A DNA stretch of 64,000 nt from Escherichia phage vB_vPM_PD114. The DNA lies in sequence record MH675927.1, one strand, 5' to 3'. Below the pieces are notes generated by a model. The model did not search any database, was not told where the DNA came from, and worked only from the letters and a program-made list of their open reading frames with translations. Below, piece by piece: positions 9,866 through 23,253 of this stretch (position 1 is its first letter; each line of letters opens with the position of its first letter). The position numbers and the translations under genes are program-made.

Positions 9866-10981
9866 TTACTCTGCTGGTTCCCAAGTACCTGGAATCATCT
9901 TACGTACACGTACCCCAACAGGCTTGGTAGGAATACCTTCGTCTGAAAATTCTTCGTACTCAATTTCAACAAATTGACCAATAAGTGTCAAAGCATTTTC
10001 TTCTTTACGATAGTTAATGGTTTCATCTGAATCCTTACGCATCAGGAATTCGACTACTTTACCATTTTCCATCTCGCCTGTCAATACCCCGTCACCATTT
10101 TTATCACGCTTTGCACTTACCACCTTAACTTCAAGCGTCTGCCGTGGTTTACGTTTAATAACATCATAAGAACGTTTATCAAACTCGTAAACACCTTGTG
10201 CATTACGATACACCACACCTTCCGCTTTCTCACGCAGAGCTTTTGCATAGAATTCATCAAACTGCTCTTGGTTTTCAATGTACTCTGTATGTACTACACA
10301 AATAAGTTCGTCTAAACCTTTATCTTGAACAACTTCTTTTAGAGCAGCCAAAACTTCAACCCTCTTCTCAAATGGTACAGATGGCACAGGAACATCATAT
10401 ACATAGTATTTAAGAAGCGGAGTGTTAGCATTATGCTTTTTCCACGCACTATTAATTTGTTGAAGGCTAAGAACACCCAAACCAGCAAAAACTTCACCGT
10501 CAAGAGGATGACCAACTACTTCTTTAATGAAGGTTGGAATTTCTTTCCAGTGAGGTGGAAGTTTATATACTTCCCCAGCTTTAGATAAGCATTCACCTTG
10601 CATGTTAATCATTGAACGTAGACCATTCAATTTATACTGTGCATAACCTGGAAACAAAACACGATCAGCATAATCTTTATAATCCTGACATTTCATGGGT
10701 GTGGAAGGAACATGGTTTTCAGCTTCCTCTTTTGTTTTATAATACCCATTCTTAAGTTGCTTTGTCCATTTGGCAAGAGCTTCTATTTCAGCTTGTTCTT
10801 CTGCTGTTGTTTCATTTGAGCGACCAATATTTTTAGGTTCTGCTGTATAAGATTTGCTAGTAATCTTTCCACCTAATTGACCATGAGTAACAGTTACAAC
10901 ACTACCTTCGGTATAGACTGACCACTGTTTAATTTTACCTGTAGAAGTTTTACCATACAATGTAGGATTAGTTTGTTTCAT
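9866..10981 (-). CDS. ATP-dependent ligase-family nucleotidyltransferase (probable DNA ligase)
   Basis: Motif I-like KLNGLR, motif III-like DGEVF, motif IV-like EGVVYR, basic KRKP region and C-terminal OB-like domain; start set at ATG after GGAGG (track start 11029 lies 16 codons upstream). Confidence 0.45.
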   Translation of the reverse strand: MKQTNPTLYGKTSTGKIKQWSVYTEGSVVTVTHGQLGGKITSKSYTAEPKNIGRSNETTAEEQAEIEALAKWTKQLKNGYYKTKEEAENHVPSTPMKCQDYKDYADRVLFPGYAQYKLNGLRSMINMQGECLSKAGEVYKLPPHWKEIPTFIKEVVGHPLDGEVFAGLGVLSLQQINSAWKKHNANTPLLKYYVYDVPVPSVPFEKRVEVLAALKEVVQDKGLDELICVVHTEYIENQEQFDEFYAKALREKAEGVVYRNAQGVYEFDKRSYDVIKRKPRQTLEVKVVSAKRDKNGDGVLTGEMENGKVVEFLMRKDSDETINYRKEENALTLIGQFVEIEYEEFSDEGIPTKPVGVRVRKMIPGTWEPAE

Positions 10982-17471: not shown

Positions 17472-19205
17472 ATGAATATTTTTGCACCTTTTGCTACTGA
17501 TTGGTACAAACCTGGTCACAAGCAGATGTACAATCAAAATACAAAACTCATTTTCTCTAATTTAACTCCTCGTAATGATAAAAACTTTGCACACTATGCA
17601 GATCGTGAAGCACGTGGTGTGATTGTTTTAGGTATTCGTCGAGCAGTCACTGATGCTCTTGTAACTATGTGGGATAGCTTCTTTAAAATGTCTCGTAGTG
17701 CAGCAGTAAATAAATTTTATCGTATGTCTAAAAATGCATTAGGTGCTTCTGCTCCTTCTGCTGAATGTTGGGGAGAATTGCACGATTTAGGTTATCTTCC
17801 GCTGGAAGTTCGATCTCTGCCAGAAGGTGTTTTGTGTCCTATTGGTGTTCCTGTGTTTACTGTGCATAATACTTTAGAAAAATTCTTTTGGTTAACTAAC
17901 TATGTGGAAACACTGTTGTCAGATGAAACTTGGAAGACAATGACTAATGCCACAGCAGCTTTTCAGTATAAGCGTATCGCTATGGCATATGCGATGGCAA
18001 CGTGTGATAATATTGATCACGTTAACTTCCAGTGTCATGACTTTAGCCTACGTGGTTTAAGTAATATCGAAGATGGTTATAAGAGTGGTATCGCTCACTT
18101 GGCATCGTTCACAGGAACAGATAATATTCTGGCTATTGAAACTGTGCATGACTATTATGGTATTGATTATGATCAGTTTGTTGCAGGTTCTATTCCGGCA
18201 ACAGAACATTCAGTAGCAACGACTAACATTGGAGCTATTGTTGAAGATCTGAAGAAACATTTCCCACATCTTAAAGATGATGTAGATGGGCTTCGTTATG
18301 TAGCAGAAAAAGAGTTTCTTCGTCGTTATATCGAAGAAATTGTTCCAGAAGGTTTTTGTTCATATGTAGCAGACTCTTATGACTATTGGGCTGTATTGAC
18401 TCGCATTCTGGTAGAATTGAAAGATTCCATTATGTCACGAAATGGTCGTCTTGTTATTCGTCCAGATTCAGGAGATCCGGTTAAAGTTGTTGCAGGATAC
18501 AATGTTGAATCTTTTGATAACTATGAAGACCTCTTAAATAATGGTATTGCGACAGCCACTGAAGTAGTTCATTTGGCTGATGTTAATAAGTATTACAATG
18601 TTCTTCAGGATTGCAGTGTTGCTGACTGTATTGATGAAACTTATGAGATTCCTTATTGTGAAGCAGTAGGTTCTATTCAAATCCTTTGGGAAGTGTTTGG
18701 TGGTACTATCAACCGAAAAGGCTACAAGGTTCTTGATCAGCATATCGGTATGATTTATGGTGATTCTATTACTGTTGAACGAGAACACGAGATCTTACGC
18801 CGACTGAAGAAGAAAGGTTTTGCAGCTTCCAATATTGTATTTGGTGTTGGTAGTTATACTTATCAGTTCAATACACGAGATACTTTTGGTTTTGCTGTTA
18901 AAGCAACAGGTAGTATTATCGGTGAACACGAAATTTTGGTAAGTAAGGAGCCTAAAACTGATCCTGGTAAACGCTCTGCAAAAGGTTTTATTAAGGTTGT
19001 TAAGGATACCAATGGTAATCTGTCTCTTGTAGATAATCTTTCTTTTAAAGATATCCAGGATGAAGACAATGAGTTACAAGTTATCTTCAAGGATGGTAAG
19101 GTTATTACACCACAAGTAGAAGGCCGTGATGAAACATTCACTGATATCCGCAACCGTGTTGACGTAGAGGTTCTTCGTACTATGGGAACCATCCAGGTTG
19201 ACTAA
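17472..19205 (+). CDS. nicotinamide phosphoribosyltransferase-family protein; candidate nicotinamide ADPR transferase (Namat) of NARP1
   Basis: 577 aa, NAMPT/NadV-like length and motifs (e.g. SIPATEHSVATT, GDSITVE); RBS AAGGAG; immediately downstream of the Prs-like gene. Confidence 0.7.
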   Translation: MNIFAPFATDWYKPGHKQMYNQNTKLIFSNLTPRNDKNFAHYADREARGVIVLGIRRAVTDALVTMWDSFFKMSRSAAVNKFYRMSKNALGASAPSAECWGELHDLGYLPLEVRSLPEGVLCPIGVPVFTVHNTLEKFFWLTNYVETLLSDETWKTMTNATAAFQYKRIAMAYAMATCDNIDHVNFQCHDFSLRGLSNIEDGYKSGIAHLASFTGTDNILAIETVHDYYGIDYDQFVAGSIPATEHSVATTNIGAIVEDLKKHFPHLKDDVDGLRYVAEKEFLRRYIEEIVPEGFCSYVADSYDYWAVLTRILVELKDSIMSRNGRLVIRPDSGDPVKVVAGYNVESFDNYEDLLNNGIATATEVVHLADVNKYYNVLQDCSVADCIDETYEIPYCEAVGSIQILWEVFGGTINRKGYKVLDQHIGMIYGDSITVEREHEILRRLKKKGFAASNIVFGVGSYTYQFNTRDTFGFAVKATGSIIGEHEILVSKEPKTDPGKRSAKGFIKVVKDTNGNLSLVDNLSFKDIQDEDNELQVIFKDGKVITPQVEGRDETFTDIRNRVDVEVLRTMGTIQVD

Positions 19206-19952: not shown

Positions 19953-20028
19953 GGTTCCATAGCTCACTGACGAGAGCGCACACCTCATAAGTGTCGAGGG
20001 CAGGGATTGTAACCCTGGGGAACCACCA
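19953..20028 (+). tRNA. tRNA-Met(CAT)-like, atypical T-loop
   Basis: Acceptor GGTTCC/GGAACC (position 7 mismatched), D-stem GCTC/GAGC, anticodon loop CTCATAA, T-arm CAGGG-ATTGTAA-CCCTG, encoded CCA. Hand-folded. Confidence 0.4.
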
Positions 20029-20059
20029 TTTAAAAGGAGATGCTATGCATCTCCTATAT

Positions 20060-20145
20060 GCAAGTGTGGTGGAATTGGTGATACACATTGTGCTTAAAAC
20101 GCAACGCTTAAATGATTGAGGGTTCGAATCCCTCCACTTGCACCA
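20060..20145 (+). tRNA. tRNA-Leu(TAA), class II
   Basis: Acceptor GCAAGTG/CACTTGC, anticodon loop CTTAAAA, long variable arm, T-arm GAGGG-TTCGAAT-CCCTC, discriminator A, CCA encoded. Confidence 0.6.
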
Positions 20146-20147
20146 AC

Positions 20148-20253
20148 GCCTAGTAGGGTATTTGGTAATTCCGAGGCCATCAAAGCCTGAAAAATATGTT
20201 AGACCGCTTTGTCTAACTAAATACGAAATATGGTTCGATTCCATAACTAGGCT
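20148..20253 (+). tRNA. tRNA-like element, unusually long (106 nt); possible pseudo-tRNA or tRNA with insertion
   Basis: Perfect acceptor pairing GCCTAGT/ACTAGGC and T-arm TATGG-TTCGATT-CCATA, but 74 nt between them with internal 7-bp hairpin GTTAGAC/GTCTAAC. Confidence 0.25.
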
Positions 20254-20285
20254 TCAATTTAAATAATAATTTTAGTAAAAATATC

Positions 20286-20314
20286 TTGACATTCACTTAG
20301 TTTTTTGTTATAGT
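20286..20314 (+). promoter_or_regulatory. sigma70-like promoter TTGACA-N17-TATAGT
   Basis: Read directly; ~12 nt upstream of next tRNA. Confidence 0.5.
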
Positions 20315-20325
20315 TACTGTGAAAA

Positions 20326-20407
20326 CGGGGTGTATCTCACCTGACTTCTAATCAGGCGTTAACCGAGTAATTGGAGTATGCAGGTTCGAATCCTGTCACC
20401 CCGACCA
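20326..20407 (+). tRNA. tRNA-like with Arg(TCT)-type anticodon arm, atypical D region
   Basis: Acceptor CGGGGTG/CACCCCG, T-arm GCAGG-TTCGAAT-CCTGT, CCA encoded; hairpin CCTGA-CTTCTAA-TCAGG only 7 nt after acceptor, no D-arm found by hand. Confidence 0.4.
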
Positions 20408-20425
20408 AAAAGTTTTAAAAACTAC

Positions 20426-20455
20426 TTGACAAGCAAGATAGTTTTATGTTAGATT
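20426..20455 (+). promoter_or_regulatory. sigma70-like promoter TTGACA-N18-TAGATT
   Basis: Read directly. Confidence 0.4.
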
Positions 20456-20470
20456 TAAAGTATGATAACG

Positions 20471-20560
20471 GGAAGGTAGGGCGCAGCGGTGCGCAACCAG
20501 GTTTGAACCCTGGCCCATTGTAGCGATACGGTGATGGTTCGACTCCATTATCTTCCTCCA
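20471..20560 (+). tRNA. tRNA-Ser(TGA), class II
   Basis: Acceptor GGAAGGT/ATCTTCC (one G-U), anticodon arm CCAGG-TTTGAAC-CCTGG, long variable arm, T-arm GATGG-TTCGACT-CCATT, CCA encoded. Confidence 0.55.
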
Positions 20561-20578
20561 AATTCAACTAGGAGCTTT

Positions 20579-20731
20579 ATGAATTATAAAACTATTGGAC
20601 AGGTTGTTACCGGAGTTAAGATTGTAGATAATAAAGTTGTTTATGAGTATTCTAATCTTCAACAATCTGAAGATGGTAAAAATATTCGTATGGTAAAAGC
20701 AGAACAAAAAGATTCCGGTTGTTTTGAATAA
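20579..20731 (+). CDS. hypothetical small protein (50 aa; track ORF 20531-20731 trimmed to avoid tRNA overlap)
   Basis: TAGGAGC...ATG at 20579 right after tRNA-Ser. Confidence 0.3.
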   Translation: MNYKTIGQVVTGVKIVDNKVVYEYSNLQQSEDGKNIRMVKAEQKDSGCFE

Positions 20732-20739
20732 TTAAGAAC

Positions 20740-20825
20740 GGTAGATTGGTGAAATGGTAGCCACAACAGTTTGCTAAACTGTCGTCGGAAACGGCGTGTA
20801 GGTTCAAGTCCTACATCTACCGCCA
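20740..20825 (+). tRNA. tRNA-Ser(GCT), class II
   Basis: Acceptor GGTAGAT/ATCTACC, anticodon arm ACAGT-TTGCTAA-ACTGT, long variable arm, T-arm GTAGG-TTCAAGT-CCTAC, discriminator G, CCA encoded. Confidence 0.6.
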
Positions 20826-20845
20826 AATTTATGCGAGGAGGATGT

Positions 20846-21226
20846 ATGCCAAGCAATGATTATATGCGGGAATACATGAAAACTCGGTGGCAGAAGCGAA
20901 GAGCTTCCGCAATCCTCCAGCTTGGAGGTAAATGTGTTAATTGTGGGTCTGTAGATGACTTGGAATTTGATCATAAAGATTCAAGCGAGAAGAAGTTTTA
21001 TATTAGTCGAATGAGTTCATGCTCTGAGGCTAAATGGCAGGAAGAACTTGCCAAATGTCAACTTTTGTGCCATGACTGTCACATGAAGAAGACAAGAATA
21101 TCCCAAGACATGGGAAACAGAATTAGAACAACGGTGTGTGTTTGCGGGGCAGTATTTTATAGTACAAAGGCTTATGCTGGACATACACGGTGGTGTAAAG
21201 AGTATGCATCGTTAGCCAAGCGGTAA
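20846..21226 (+). CDS. HNH endonuclease (free-standing, inside tRNA cluster)
   Basis: CVNCGSVDDLEFDHKD...CQLLCHDCHMKK...C-terminal Cys/His cluster; RBS GAGGAGG; last ~7 codons overlap the 5' end of the following tRNA. Confidence 0.55.
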   Translation: MPSNDYMREYMKTRWQKRRASAILQLGGKCVNCGSVDDLEFDHKDSSEKKFYISRMSSCSEAKWQEELAKCQLLCHDCHMKKTRISQDMGNRIRTTVCVCGAVFYSTKAYAGHTRWCKEYASLAKR

Positions 21227-21280
21227 GGCACTTGACTTTTAATCAAGGGAGCGAAGGTTCGAATCCTTCACGATGTACCA
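21206..21280 (+). tRNA. tRNA-Lys(TTT)
   Basis: Acceptor GCATCGT/ACGATGT (G1-U72), D-stem GCC/GGC, anticodon arm CTTGA-CTTTTAA-TCAAG, T-arm GAAGG-TTCGAAT-CCTTC, CCA encoded. Confidence 0.55.
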
Positions 21281-21285
21281 AACAC

Positions 21286-21372
21286 GTAGGTATCGCATAG
21301 CGGCAATTGCTGGAGACTGTAAATCTCCTGCCCTTCGGGGCTTCGTTGGTTCGAGTCCAACTACCTGCACCA
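21286..21372 (+). tRNA. tRNA-Tyr(GTA), class II
   Basis: Acceptor GTAGGTA/TACCTGC, anticodon arm GGAGA-CTGTAAA-TCTCC, long variable arm, T-arm GTTGG-TTCGAGT-CCAAC, discriminator A, CCA. Confidence 0.55.
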
Positions 21373-21379
21373 AATTAAA

Positions 21380-21464
21380 GATGGATTGGCCTAGTGGTTG
21401 GGCGACGGACTGTTAATCCGTGAACGAAAGTTCTAGCAAGGTTCAAATCCTTGATCCATCGCCA
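21380..21464 (+). tRNA. class II (Ser-like architecture) tRNA with GTT anticodon
   Basis: Acceptor GATGGAT/ATCCATC, 3-bp D-stem GCC/GGC, anticodon arm ACGGA-CTGTTAA-TCCGT, 15-nt variable hairpin GAAC-GAAA-GTTC, T-arm CAAGG-TTCAAAT-CCTTG, discriminator G, CCA. Confidence 0.45.
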
Positions 21465-21471
21465 GAATTAT

Positions 21472-21548
21472 GGACTTGTAGAGTTAAGGTAAACCCTCAG
21501 TCGCAAAGAGGCTTCTGGAATTGCAGGTATCGAATCCTGCCGAGTCCA
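21472..21548 (+). tRNA. tRNA, anticodon unresolved
   Basis: Acceptor GGACTTG/CGAGTCC, T-arm GCAGG-(T)ATCGAAT-CCTGC with 8-nt loop; anticodon arm could not be folded unambiguously (possible loop GTCGCAA). Confidence 0.35.
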
Positions 21549-21554
21549 ATTATT

Positions 21555-21629
21555 GCTCCTATCGTATAACGGCTATTACGGTTGCCTTGTAAGCAACTTA
21601 TCAGGGTTCGAGTCCTTGTGGGAGCACCA
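21555..21629 (+). tRNA. tRNA-Thr(TGT)
   Basis: Acceptor GCTCCTA/TGGGAGC, anticodon arm GTTGC-CTTGTAA-GCAAC, T-arm CAGGG-TTCGAGT-CCTTG, CCA encoded. Confidence 0.55.
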
Positions 21630-21652
21630 ATTTTAACTCTAAAGGAGTGTAT

Positions 21653-21976
21653 GTGACAGAAAAAGAGTTAGAGAAATATTTTAATATCAATGTTTTCGAT
21701 GGTTTTGATGATATTGAAGATGTTGAAAGATATTATGAAGTAGAGTTAGATAAGGATAACATTGTAATTCTTTCTGCCACTTATGATTGTGCATATTATG
21801 AAGGTGAATCTCACGTTTATTTTTATGATATGAAAACATCTTTGTTTTATGAAGTACACGCATATCATTGTTCTTGTTATGGTTTAGAAGGTCAGTGGGA
21901 ACCTGAAGAAATAGGTGATTTGAGCTTTACGGTTGCATATCTAAACAGACGTGGTGCATCTACTATTTTAAAATAA
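21653..21976 (+). CDS. hypothetical acidic protein (107 aa) inside tRNA cluster
   Basis: AGGAG then GTG at 21653 (track start 21647 overlaps the RBS); ORF track. Confidence 0.4.
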   Translation: MTEKELEKYFNINVFDGFDDIEDVERYYEVELDKDNIVILSATYDCAYYEGESHVYFYDMKTSLFYEVHAYHCSCYGLEGQWEPEEIGDLSFTVAYLNRRGASTILK

Positions 21977-21990
21977 ATATTAAAAGCCTC

Positions 21991-22020
21991 TTGACAAAGG
22001 GGCTAATAATATGTTAGAGT
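21991..22020 (+). promoter_or_regulatory. sigma70-like promoter TTGACA-N18-TAGAGT
   Basis: Read directly; precedes tRNA-Gly. Confidence 0.45.
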
Positions 22021-22031
22021 AATATTGTTAA

Positions 22032-22106
22032 GCGGGTATAGTGTTAATGGTAGCATATGAGGTTTCCACCCTCCAGGTGCAGGTTCAAGTCCTGTTACTC
22101 GCTCCA
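22032..22106 (+). tRNA. tRNA-Gly(TCC)
   Basis: Acceptor GCGGGTA/TACTCGC, anticodon loop TTTCCAC, T-arm GCAGG-TTCAAGT-CCTGT, CCA encoded. Confidence 0.5.
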
Positions 22107-22537
22107 AGATTATTTAAATGGAATCGCTAGAGAAAATTTCTCTTTTCGCTCATGGTTTTCTCCTTCAAACTCTAGCGGTTCTTTTTAAGTGATTTTTTAG
22201 TTTATTGGAGATTCACTGCCTTAGTGTGAGCTAAAATCGAGGAGCCATCGAACTGTCTGATTAATGATTTGCGAATCATTATAGTTTTAAGACCCCGGCA
22301 GTTTTATGGTGTACCTCTTGAATGTGAATGATGACGGGTTTATGGTTATCCTGGTCGTTAAATATCCAAAAACCTATGTTCCCCTTGAGGGCTTGCGCAG
22401 GCAATGCCAATAAGTCCTGCATTTTCATTTAAAAGAGAATTTATAATGGAAAAAGATGAACTTAAGTATGCTAAGCCTCTGGCTTCTGCTGCACGAAAAG
22501 CAGTTCGTCACTTTGTGGTAACACTGAAGTAATTTAT

Positions 22538-22612
22538 TGGAGATTAGCCTAGTGGGAAGGCAACGGCCTTTGAAGTCGTGATGACTAGGTTCGATTCCTA
22601 GATCTCCAGCCA
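22538..22612 (+). tRNA. tRNA-Gln(TTG)
   Basis: Acceptor TGGAGAT/ATCTCCA, D-stem GCC/GGC, anticodon arm ACGGC-CTTTGAA-GTCGT, T-arm CTAGG-TTCGATT-CCTAG, CCA. Confidence 0.5.
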
Positions 22613-22619
22613 AGATTTA

Positions 22620-22695
22620 CAGTGCGTAGCGCAGTTGGTAGCGTGGGAGCCTTGGACGCTTCAGGTCGCAGGTTCGAGTCCTGCCGCACTGACCA
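22620..22695 (+). tRNA. tRNA-Pro(TGG)
   Basis: Acceptor CAGTGCG/CGCACTG (C1-G72), anticodon arm GGAGC-CTTGGAC-GCTTC, T-arm GCAGG-TTCGAGT-CCTGC, CCA. Confidence 0.55.
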
Positions 22696-22700
22696 AATTT

Positions 22701-22775
22701 GCAGAGATAGCTGAGACGGATTAGTGCTACCCTGAAAAGGTAGAAAGGATGGATCGTTACCATCTCTCTGCACCA
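22701..22775 (+). tRNA. tRNA-Phe(GAA)
   Basis: Acceptor GCAGAGA/TCTCTGC, anticodon arm CTACC-CTGAAAA-GGTAG, T-arm GATGG-ATCGTTA-CCATC (atypical loop), CCA. Confidence 0.5.
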
Positions 22776-22852
22776 AATAACACCATCCAAGGAGTAGACT
22801 TGGTTAACTGTCAATAGCACATTGAGGCTTCTTACAGTGGTGTACTTATTAT

Positions 22853-22937
22853 GGCTAAGTGGTGGAATGGTATACACGATACGCTTAGAACGTATTGCCC
22901 CAAGGGATTGTGAGTTCGAGTCTCACCTTAGCTACCA
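22853..22937 (+). tRNA. tRNA-Leu(TAG), class II
   Basis: Acceptor GGCTAAG/CTTAGCT, anticodon arm ATACG-CTTAGAA-CGTAT, long variable arm, T-arm GTGAG-TTCGAGT-CTCAC, discriminator A, CCA. Confidence 0.55.
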
Positions 22938-22952
22938 AATTATTACAGATTG

Positions 22953-23031
22953 CGCGGGATAGAGGAGTCTGGTCGTCCTCGCCAGTTTCATATGCTGGAG
23001 ATCATCGGTTCAAATCCGATTCCCGCCTCCA
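22953..23031 (+). tRNA. tRNA with CAT anticodon (Met, or Ile2 if lysidine-modified), C1:C72 mismatch
   Basis: Acceptor CGCGGGA/TCCCGCC with unpaired 1:72, D-stem GAGG/CCTC, anticodon arm CCAGT-TTCATAT-GCTGG, T-arm ATCGG-TTCAAAT-CCGAT, CCA. Confidence 0.45.
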
Positions 23032-23089
23032 CTAAATACCTCCCTTCTGGTGTAATGATTAAATTACATTGACACCTCAAGGAACTCAT

Positions 23090-23172
23090 AGCTGGGTAGA
23101 TTTAAAAGAGTATGGTACTCAATATGGCTCCAAACCATAGATCAAGGGGTTCGATTCCTCACCTTGCTGCCA
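23090..23172 (+). tRNA. tRNA-Trp(CCA)-like, boundaries uncertain
   Basis: Anticodon arm TATGG-CTCCAAA-CCATA, T-loop TTCGATT, 3' CCTTGCT-G-CCA; acceptor pairing has a mismatch, D region long. Confidence 0.3.
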
Positions 23173-23177
23173 ATTAT

Positions 23178-23253
23178 TGTGGTATCGTACAGATGGTTAG
23201 TACACTCGACCGATAATCGAGAAACAACGGTTCGACTCCGTTTACCACGACCA
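23178..23253 (+). tRNA. tRNA-Ile(GAT)
   Basis: Acceptor TGTGGTA/TACCACG, D-stem GTAC/GTAC, anticodon arm CTCGA-CCGATAA-TCGAG, T-arm AACGG-TTCGACT-CCGTT, CCA. Confidence 0.45.

Follow-up and report, generated by a model that had tools for sequence, protein, structure and literature searches.

The window analysed here, the whole 64,000-nucleotide (nt) stretch of record MH675927.1 from Escherichia phage vB_vPM_PD114, carries at 21380-21464 of its forward strand an 85-nt gene for a transfer RNA (tRNA), which ARAGORN calls as tRNA-Asn(gtt) with the anticodon at position 33 and which Rfam model RF00005 matches at 56.5 bits (E=1.1e-10; gathering score 29). Its minimum free energy fold (-29.5 kcal/mol, z=-2.6) is a cloverleaf plus an extra hairpin, a departure from the short variable loop of 4-5 nt of a canonical class I tRNA. 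The source phage belongs to the phi92/PD06-like E. coli myoviruses (Stephanstirmvirinae), and its tRNA region is 97-99% identical to those of phages KKP_3264, PD06 and phi92. The gene is laid out as follows.

21380-21464, forward strand: the complete gene, a long-armed tRNA-Asn(GUU) of 85 nt with its encoded CCA (ARAGORN, Rfam, fold, covariation)
21380-21386, forward strand: 5' strand of the acceptor stem, GATGGAT, pairing with 21454-21460 (ATCCATC)
21389-21403, forward strand: D arm, GCC-TAGTGGTTG-GGC (sequence and fold; this second helix is 100% paired in homologues)
21405-21421, forward strand: anticodon arm, ACGGA-CTGTTAA-TCCGT (alignment with E. coli K-12 asnT)
21412-21414, forward strand: anticodon GTT, reading AAC/AAU (ARAGORN; invariant in all homologues)
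21422-21436, forward strand: variable arm, 15 nt, GAAC-GAAA-GTTC-TAG (compensatory changes)
21437-21453, forward strand: T arm, CAAGG-TTCAAAT-CCTTG (sequence, covariation)
21461-21464, forward strand: discriminator G73 (21461) and encoded CCA (sequence)

The acceptor stem begins with the pairs G1-C72, A2-U71 and U3-A70. The D stem has 3 base pairs (bp), GCC/GGC, with a possible additional U13-G22, and C11-G24 is present. In the variable arm a stem of 4 bp (21422-21425 with 21430-21433) is closed by a GAAA tetraloop (21426-21429) and followed by an unpaired TAG (21434-21436). A preliminary description of this gene, made from the sequence, had singled it out as a class II-type tRNA with an Asn anticodon, and ARAGORN, Rfam, the fold and covariation all bear out this unusual combination; the 3-bp D stem, the 15-nt variable arm, the discriminator G and the loop CTGTTAA that it listed are each accurate. 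It had also raised the question of whether correct folding would bring another triplet into the anticodon position: none of the alternative folds of 21380-21464 does so.

We examined covariation in 13 diverged homologues that share the layout of the window tRNA. Standard pairs occupy 99.4% of cells, against 63.9% in shuffled controls and 33-49% when the pairing is slid. All 7 acceptor pairs covary. In the helix of the variable arm pairing reaches 100%, and 3 of the 4 pairs have changed on both strands; the compensatory stems are GAAC/GTTC, GAGA/TCTC, GAGT/ACTC, GTTC/GAAC and GTC/GAC. The structure of the long tRNA-Asn is under selection. We also considered that the arm might be an intron or a processing artefact and rejected this, since it is a covarying 4-bp hairpin located where tRNAs normally have their variable region.

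The gene belongs to a large family. The 85-nt window gene matches 154 phage records, at 100% identity in Justusliebigvirus (dozens of phi92-like genomes), ~92% in Klebsiella phages, ~84% in PVP-SE1-like Salmonella phages and ~75% in phAPEC8-like phages, and the long tRNA-Asn of a T5-like phage used as query returns 695 records, T5-like and T4-like phages (CC31, PKO111, CHI14) among them. In every homologous locus retrieved ARAGORN finds an 82-86 nt tRNA with GTT. We collected 156 unique long GTT tRNAs from phi92-, rV5-, T5- and T4-like phages as well as from a large number of metagenomic ones. The GTT anticodon is invariant across this family and the loop is nearly always GNRA, being GAAA in 81 of 99 pattern-selected members and GTAA, GAAA, GCAA or GAGA in the unbiased set. 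The phi92 record annotates the same 85-nt gene, in the same tRNA array, as tRNA-Asn with anticodon GTT, and GenBank records label the long form plain tRNA-Asn. A long-armed tRNA-Asn was not described in the full-text literature and the reviews of tRNA identity and non-canonical tRNAs that we searched, which is no proof of its absence from the literature as a whole. Four records that bear the name 'Campylobacter phage' and give C. jejuni as host (MG065639, MG065656, MG065645, MG065689) are ~97% identical across the tRNA array; these names look like mislabelling or contamination.

Two structural pattern scans of IMG/VR, one with constrained arm length and a required GAAA, the other a repeat with a free gap (arm length and loop unconstrained), each returned at least 120 loci and led to the same conclusions. 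With the same pattern, 185,579 bacterial and archaeal genomes, one per species, yielded 15 loci only. The 15 cellular matches are contigs of metagenome-assembled genomes, assigned to Heimdallarchaeota, Thaumarchaeota, Methanothrix, Bacteroides, Treponema and others, that bear dense mixed tRNA arrays including the long tRNA-Asn. Since such arrays, some of them in 'archaeal' bins, indicate phage DNA, these are probably viral contigs that were mis-binned. The scans directly support the view that the family is restricted to viruses. When both forms of tRNA-Asn were accepted, the long form was present on 9 of 80 viral contigs among the matches listed.

The preliminary description had allowed that the gene could be a pseudogene. 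It might, on that view, be the degenerating copy of a Ser or Tyr tRNA of class II whose anticodon has mutated. Its arm is indeed Tyr-like, it adjoins a tRNA-Tyr both here and in phAPEC8, and one family member, that of phage Bas34 (SelmaRatti), is broken. A decaying gene, however, would hardly be 100% identical across dozens of phi92-like genomes, conserved to 75% with compensation in every helix, (nearly) invariant in GTT and G73, and distinct from Tyr and Ser in the profile comparisons given below. The covariation effectively refutes a pseudogene, and we regard its probability as negligible.

Which amino acid does this tRNA carry? In E. coli, Asn identity resides in the three anticodon bases and G73 and can be transplanted into another tRNA (PMC9976931). 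The pair U1-A72 is a bacterial tRNA-Asn signature and a determinant for transamidation by GatCAB, which E. coli asparaginyl-tRNA synthetase (AsnRS) does without (PMC9976931). Ser identity, by contrast, depends on tertiary shape and on the long arm, and in E. coli the pairs G1-C72 and G2-C71 are conserved without exception; seryl-tRNA synthetase (SerRS) ignores the anticodon, as the preliminary description had said, and relies mainly on that arm and shape (PMC9976931). Known antideterminants are C2-G71 against SerRS, and G73 against the leucyl and tyrosyl enzymes (PMC9976931).

The window tRNA has all the identity elements of E. coli tRNA-Asn (G34-U35-U36 and G73), and its anticodon arm is identical to E. 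coli asnT at positions 28-43 (16 nt), which makes charging of this long tRNA-Asn with asparagine by the host AsnRS most probable. G73, being common to Ser and Asn, is not diagnostic of Ser, and it excludes Tyr and Leu. It occurs in 144 of 156 members of the long family (92%) and in 48 of 51 phage class I tRNA-Asn (94%), while A73 is found in 66 of 66 phage tRNA-Tyr. Likewise U1-A72 is as frequent in long tRNA-Asn (53%) as in phage class I tRNA-Asn (55%), against only 0-6% in phage Ser, Tyr, Leu, Lys, Asp, Thr and His tRNAs. The modal stem of the variable arm is 5-6 bp in phage Ser, 3-4 bp in phage Tyr and 3-4 bp in long Asn tRNAs, and the unpaired 3' nucleotides of the arm number 1, 3 and 3-4, respectively (3 in the window tRNA). 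The geometry of the window arm is Tyr-like, not Ser-like, and the sample drawn with arm length and loop left free agrees on these differences.

As a stand-in for isotype models we used hidden Markov models (HMMs) with the anticodon masked, in two-fold cross-validation. True tRNAs of the Ser, Tyr, Leu and class I Asn types score 32-43 bits with the model of their own type and 8-17 with the others, the held-out references giving a median of 33.4 bits for true Ser on the Ser HMM and 34 for true Tyr on the Tyr HMM. Held-out long tRNA-Asn reach 45.5 bits on their own HMM, and 22 on Ser, 20 on Tyr, 9 on Leu and 18 on class I Asn. For 78 such members the best non-self HMM is Ser in 42, Tyr in 22 and class I Asn in 13, with low scores. 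Judged by these profiles, the long tRNA-Asn family is a class of its own with Asn-type ends. We do not claim descent from Tyr or Ser, since the masked HMMs give no single clean parent across the family.

These results leave little of the Ser-type body that the preliminary description had seen in the gene, in which it saw the structural elements that give a tRNA-Ser its identity. When the anticodon is masked, the window tRNA itself scores 19.0 bits on class I Asn, 16.2 on Tyr and 14.9 on Ser; G2-C71 and A3-U70 are absent, the arm is Tyr-like, and G73 is the Asn discriminator as well. The anticodon arm, too, is unlike that of the phage's own tRNA-Ser(GCT), which has the loop TTGCTAA and a different stem.

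The consequence drawn from that body was a missense tRNA, charged by SerRS through the long arm and G73 and inserting Ser, fully or partly, at AAC/AAU codons. The window tRNA does offer SerRS a long arm, G73, G1-C72 and C11-G24, and that enzyme disregards the anticodon in favour, mainly, of arm and tertiary shape (PMC9976931); in the family, G2-C71 is found in 35 of 99 members, and among the non-self HMMs that of Ser fits 42 of the 78 held-out members best, albeit at low scores. On the other hand, phage tRNA-Ser of the same loci keep G2-C71 in 57 of 60 cases and A3-U70 in 55 of 60, pairs that the window tRNA lacks, and in the long tRNA-Asn family pairs 2-71 and 3-70 vary freely, with the SerRS antideterminant C2-G71 in about a third of members. 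The arm has 3-4 bp and 3-4 unpaired 3' nt rather than the 5-6 bp and 1 of Ser, the U1-A72 of 53% of members is a typical Asn feature that cannot be reconciled with Ser identity, and the full Asn identity set is conserved. Moreover, Asn accounts for 5.7% of the 17,176 codons in the open reading frames of the window (G+C content 37.9%) and falls at conserved Asn positions, so that substitution would be broadly damaging. The AAY-encoded residues of the phage homologue of NAMPT, for example, coincide with conserved Asn in solved NAMPT structures, which indicates that the coding logic of this genome treats AAY as Asn. We therefore consider serylation with decoding of AAC/AAU improbable, and a functional Asn tRNA, not a Ser tRNA, highly probable on the sequence evidence.

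A further argument comes from the surroundings of the gene, where the following features are relevant.

19953-23253, forward strand: phage tRNA array, 15 ARAGORN genes and one found by Rfam only
21206-21372, forward strand: tRNA-Lys(UUU) and tRNA-Tyr(GUA), directly upstream of the tRNA-Asn (ARAGORN)
21472-21548, forward strand: degenerate tRNA-like element, homologue of T5 'rna3' (RF00005 28.0 bits, under the gathering score of 29)
21555-21629, forward strand: tRNA-Thr(UGU), the next gene of the array (ARAGORN)

The local gene order is thus Lys(UUU)-Tyr-Asn-(tRNA-like)-Thr(UGU), and the spacer of 7 nt between Tyr and Asn suggests a single processed transcript. The tRNA-like element has a 7-bp acceptor stem, a good T arm and an aberrant anticodon arm, and is without CCA; in T5 the 'rna3' is annotated as a putative tRNA-like RNA. 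By alignment an rna3-like element lies 3' of tRNA-Asn in T5, Lindwurm, phAPEC8 and the window, and marks a syntenic Asn locus. At one such locus, Cys-Asn-rna3, T5 and Lindwurm have alternative forms of the tRNA, class I in T5 and long in Lindwurm, and the T5 class I tRNA-Asn aligns to the long form apart from a clean gap of 10 nt where the variable arm is. The interchange of both forms at one locus argues that they do the same job, and speaks once more against a missense tRNA. In T5 (NC_005859 33952-34524) a coding sequence, T5.069, lies between tRNA-Cys and tRNA-Asn and overlaps the 5' end of the class I tRNA-Asn, and in Lindwurm the tRNA-Cys is followed directly by the long tRNA-Asn. This arrangement suggests a cassette replacement at the Asn locus of T5 and Lindwurm, in a region rich in homing endonucleases.

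How could a long arm be of use to a tRNA-Asn? AriB, of the PARIS defence, cuts E. coli tRNA-Lys(UUU) as well as tRNA-Thr(UGU) and, less efficiently, tRNA-Asn(GUU) between positions 40 and 41, and the Lys, Thr and Asn tRNAs of T5 jointly neutralise PARIS (PMC12409363). Recognition by AriB uses elements distant from the cut site (PMC12409363). P2 OLD is another TOPRIM tRNase, and phage tRNAs vary in their resistance to it (recent preprint). The window tRNA-Asn is a phage-encoded isoacceptor of an AriB target, with those of the other two targets, Lys(UUU) and Thr(UGU), close by in the array, and its hairpin begins at position 44, three nt from the AriB cut. The window tRNA-Lys(UUU), at 21206-21280, retains the E. 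coli AriB site UAAUCA, while tRNA-Thr(UGU) at 21555-21629 has G at position 39 (UAAGCA), as has the PVP-SE1 homologue of the long tRNA-Asn (U39G); in tRNA-Lys the change U39A abolishes AriB cleavage (PMC12409363).

In our preferred reading, an ordinary tRNA-Asn cloverleaf has a built-in hairpin in the variable region, of 3-4 bp with a GNRA loop and 3-4 unpaired 3' nt. Charged with Asn, it would read AAC/AAU in a phage rich in Asn codons, and it should stay usable, as the ribosome already accommodates long arms. The extra arm would change the shape of the tRNA beside the 3' strand of the anticodon stem, where AriB cuts, and this change of shape could spare the phage copy from host tRNA-cleaving defences. 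As a whole, a functional Asn tRNA of a virus-specific structural variety, with an arm that alters its shape, is a reading to which we assign a probability of about 0.72. The more specific proposal that the arm is a nuclease shield, the leading idea on its role, we regard as possible, at somewhat less than even odds.

Several observations weigh against this reading. Class II synthetases are generally described as approaching the tRNA from the side of the variable arm, so that AsnRS might be hindered by a long one. The window tRNA has G1-C72 rather than the Asn-type U1-A72, and together with G73 and the long arm this leaves some room for weak serylation. A class I tRNA-Asn lies nearby at 47 of 198 loci, and redundancy of the two forms may therefore be incomplete. 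As regards the shield, the host AriB site U36-A-A-U-C-C41 (UAAUCC) is unchanged in the window tRNA-Asn, and any resistance would have to stem from shape; in an AlphaFold 3 model the second contact of AriB is with the D loop and not the variable region (PMC12409363). Finally, we rejected the idea that the T5 tRNA-Asn of the PARIS experiments is itself the long form: it is class I, 78 nt, and neither the PARIS data nor the note in the T5 record that replacing the anticodon yields no amber suppressor transfers to the long form.

Bas34 (SelmaRatti, MZ501103) is the only phage with a long-family member that was tested against PARIS. Its annotated tRNA-Asn (401-483 of the locus retrieved) is a long-form copy whose acceptor strands, GGGTCGT and ACCCGCT, no longer pair (three mismatches), and ARAGORN does not call it; to judge by its sequence, this copy is probably dead. 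The broken acceptor stem may explain why Bas34 needs the T5 tRNA-Asn in trans (PMC12409363). We considered that need as evidence against function of the long form and found it uninformative, the phage's own copy being broken.

Competitive inhibition by overexpressed viral tRNAs, a possibility raised by the authors of the PARIS study (PMC12409363), leads to another explanation, which the preliminary description had also mentioned: the RNA might be a decoy, not translating at all, that titrates host tRNA nucleases or defence proteins which bind the anticodon arm of tRNA-Asn. That arm is identical to the host's, AriB site included. A decoy would need neither a perfect 7-bp acceptor stem nor G73, CCA, U1-A72 and a canonical T loop, however, and all of these are conserved or covarying; the exchange with class I tRNA-Asn at one locus argues for a translational role as well. 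We hold a decoy to be very unlikely.

It is also conceivable that the tRNA is a functional Asn tRNA and that its arm has nothing to do with nucleases, being either a handle for some phage or host factor (for example one that processes the polycistronic transcript, stabilises or modifies the tRNA, or helps it to evade acceptor-end toxins) or a neutral inherited insertion tolerated by AsnRS. The strong preference for GNRA, a common motif of RNA-protein and RNA-RNA contacts, would suit a handle, and the unchanged AriB site also speaks for an arm unrelated to nucleases. A neutral insertion is difficult to reconcile with compensatory changes and fixed geometry across 156 diverse sequences, and the presence of a similar arm on known tRNase-target isotypes (Thr, Lys, Asp) is suggestive of a link to nucleases. 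We judge an arm unrelated to nucleases to be unlikely.

Arms on other isotypes raise a broader idea, namely that the GNRA-capped hairpin is a portable 'armour' module which phages graft onto tRNAs that are normally class I. Asn would be the most frequent carrier, with Thr(UGU), Lys, Cys, Met, Asp and Glu besides, and the module would block docking of AriB of PARIS, of OLD-type TOPRIM tRNases and of colicin-like anticodon nucleases with synthetase identity kept, as an alternative to mutation of the cleavage site as in T5. We find this tentative and rather doubtful. A similar short arm was seen on phage Thr(tgt), Lys(ttt/ctt), Cys(gca), Met(cat), Asp(gtc) and Glu(ttc) tRNAs, some of which may be ARAGORN miscalls; examples are L015:4406-4492, L028:8996-9086, L023:1179-1262, L034:1828-1915 and L002:3286-3374. 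In the unique by-catch, the share of genes of at least 82 nt is 25% for Cys, 13% for Thr, 11% for Met and 5.6% for Lys tRNAs.

Several known tRNAs come close to the window gene. With E. coli tRNA-Asn(GUU) (asnT/U/V/W) it shares GUU, G73, A37 and positions 28-43; outside the shared features the two are ~50% different, the host tRNA having a variable loop of 5 nt, a D stem of 4 bp and U1-A72 where the window tRNA has a 15-nt arm, 3 bp and G1-C72. T5 tRNA-Asn(GUU) (T5t17) is likewise a phage Asn isoacceptor with G73 from the syntenic Cys-Asn-rna3 locus, but it is class I, 78 nt long, and has an altered anticodon stem at the cleavage site (UAAGUU), whereas the window tRNA has the host site and the arm. 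Bacterial tRNA-Tyr(GUA) resembles the window tRNA in its arm of 3-4 bp with 0-1 unpaired 5' nt and 3 unpaired 3' nt, in G34-U35 and in the loop CUGUNAA, and Tyr-like D arms (CCCGAGTGGTAGCAGGG) occur in some members of the long tRNA-Asn family; it differs by A73 (66 of 66 in phages) and A36, against G73 and U36. Bacterial tRNA-Ser shares the long arm, G73, G1-C72 and C11-G24, and the phage's own tRNA-Ser(GCT) even has a GAAA loop in a 15-nt arm, as has the window tRNA-Asn; tRNA-Ser differs by G2-C71 and A3-U70, a longer stem, 1 rather than 3 unpaired 3' nt and another anticodon arm. Finally, the nev-tRNAs of nematodes (PMC3333845) and the allo-tRNAs (PMC5389517) also combine a long arm with an anticodon other than Leu, Ser or Tyr. 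Their bodies keep Leu or Ser/Ala identity, however, and charging follows the body, whereas the identity elements of the window tRNA match its own anticodon.

The bacterial class II tRNAs of the textbooks are Leu, Ser and Tyr (and Sec). Asn would be a fourth isotype with a class II-type form, confined to viruses; hundreds of sequenced phages have it, among them well-used E. coli phages of the phi92-, rV5-, T5- and T4-like groups. If AsnRS does charge it, a class IIb synthetase tolerates a long arm, which would be useful for tRNA engineering, for instance of aptamer-tagged or orthogonal tRNAs. If the arm is protective, phages would have a second, shape-based route of escape, which would help to explain why they carry tRNAs of their own; it would predict resistance of phages to PARIS-like systems and would matter for the engineering of host range in phage therapy. 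Were the armour module real, the structural class of a tRNA would itself be a front of the arms race between phage and host, and were the tRNA serylated after all, it would be a natural device for proteome-wide mistranslation of Asn to Ser.

Elsewhere in the window, the NAMPT-type nicotinamide phosphoribosyltransferase (17472-19205, forward strand; matching solved NAMPTs at E=4.5e-118) and an ATP-dependent DNA ligase (9866-10981, reverse strand) are encoded, and genes for terminase, portal, tail sheath and baseplate lie downstream. The tRNA at 20326-20404 (forward strand) is found by Rfam at 40 bits and has no ARAGORN call; a sigma-70-like promoter match (11/12) lies just upstream of it at 20286-20314. 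A 79-nt tRNA-Met(cat) at 22953-23031 (forward strand) has its anticodon at position 37, hence an unusually long 5' half, and its phAPEC8 homologue is annotated 'tRNA-Pseudo-CAT'. In Salmonella phage PVP-SE1, ARAGORN reads a four-base anticodon (ggca) in an 86-nt gene (2348-2433 of the locus retrieved) annotated as tRNA-Lys.

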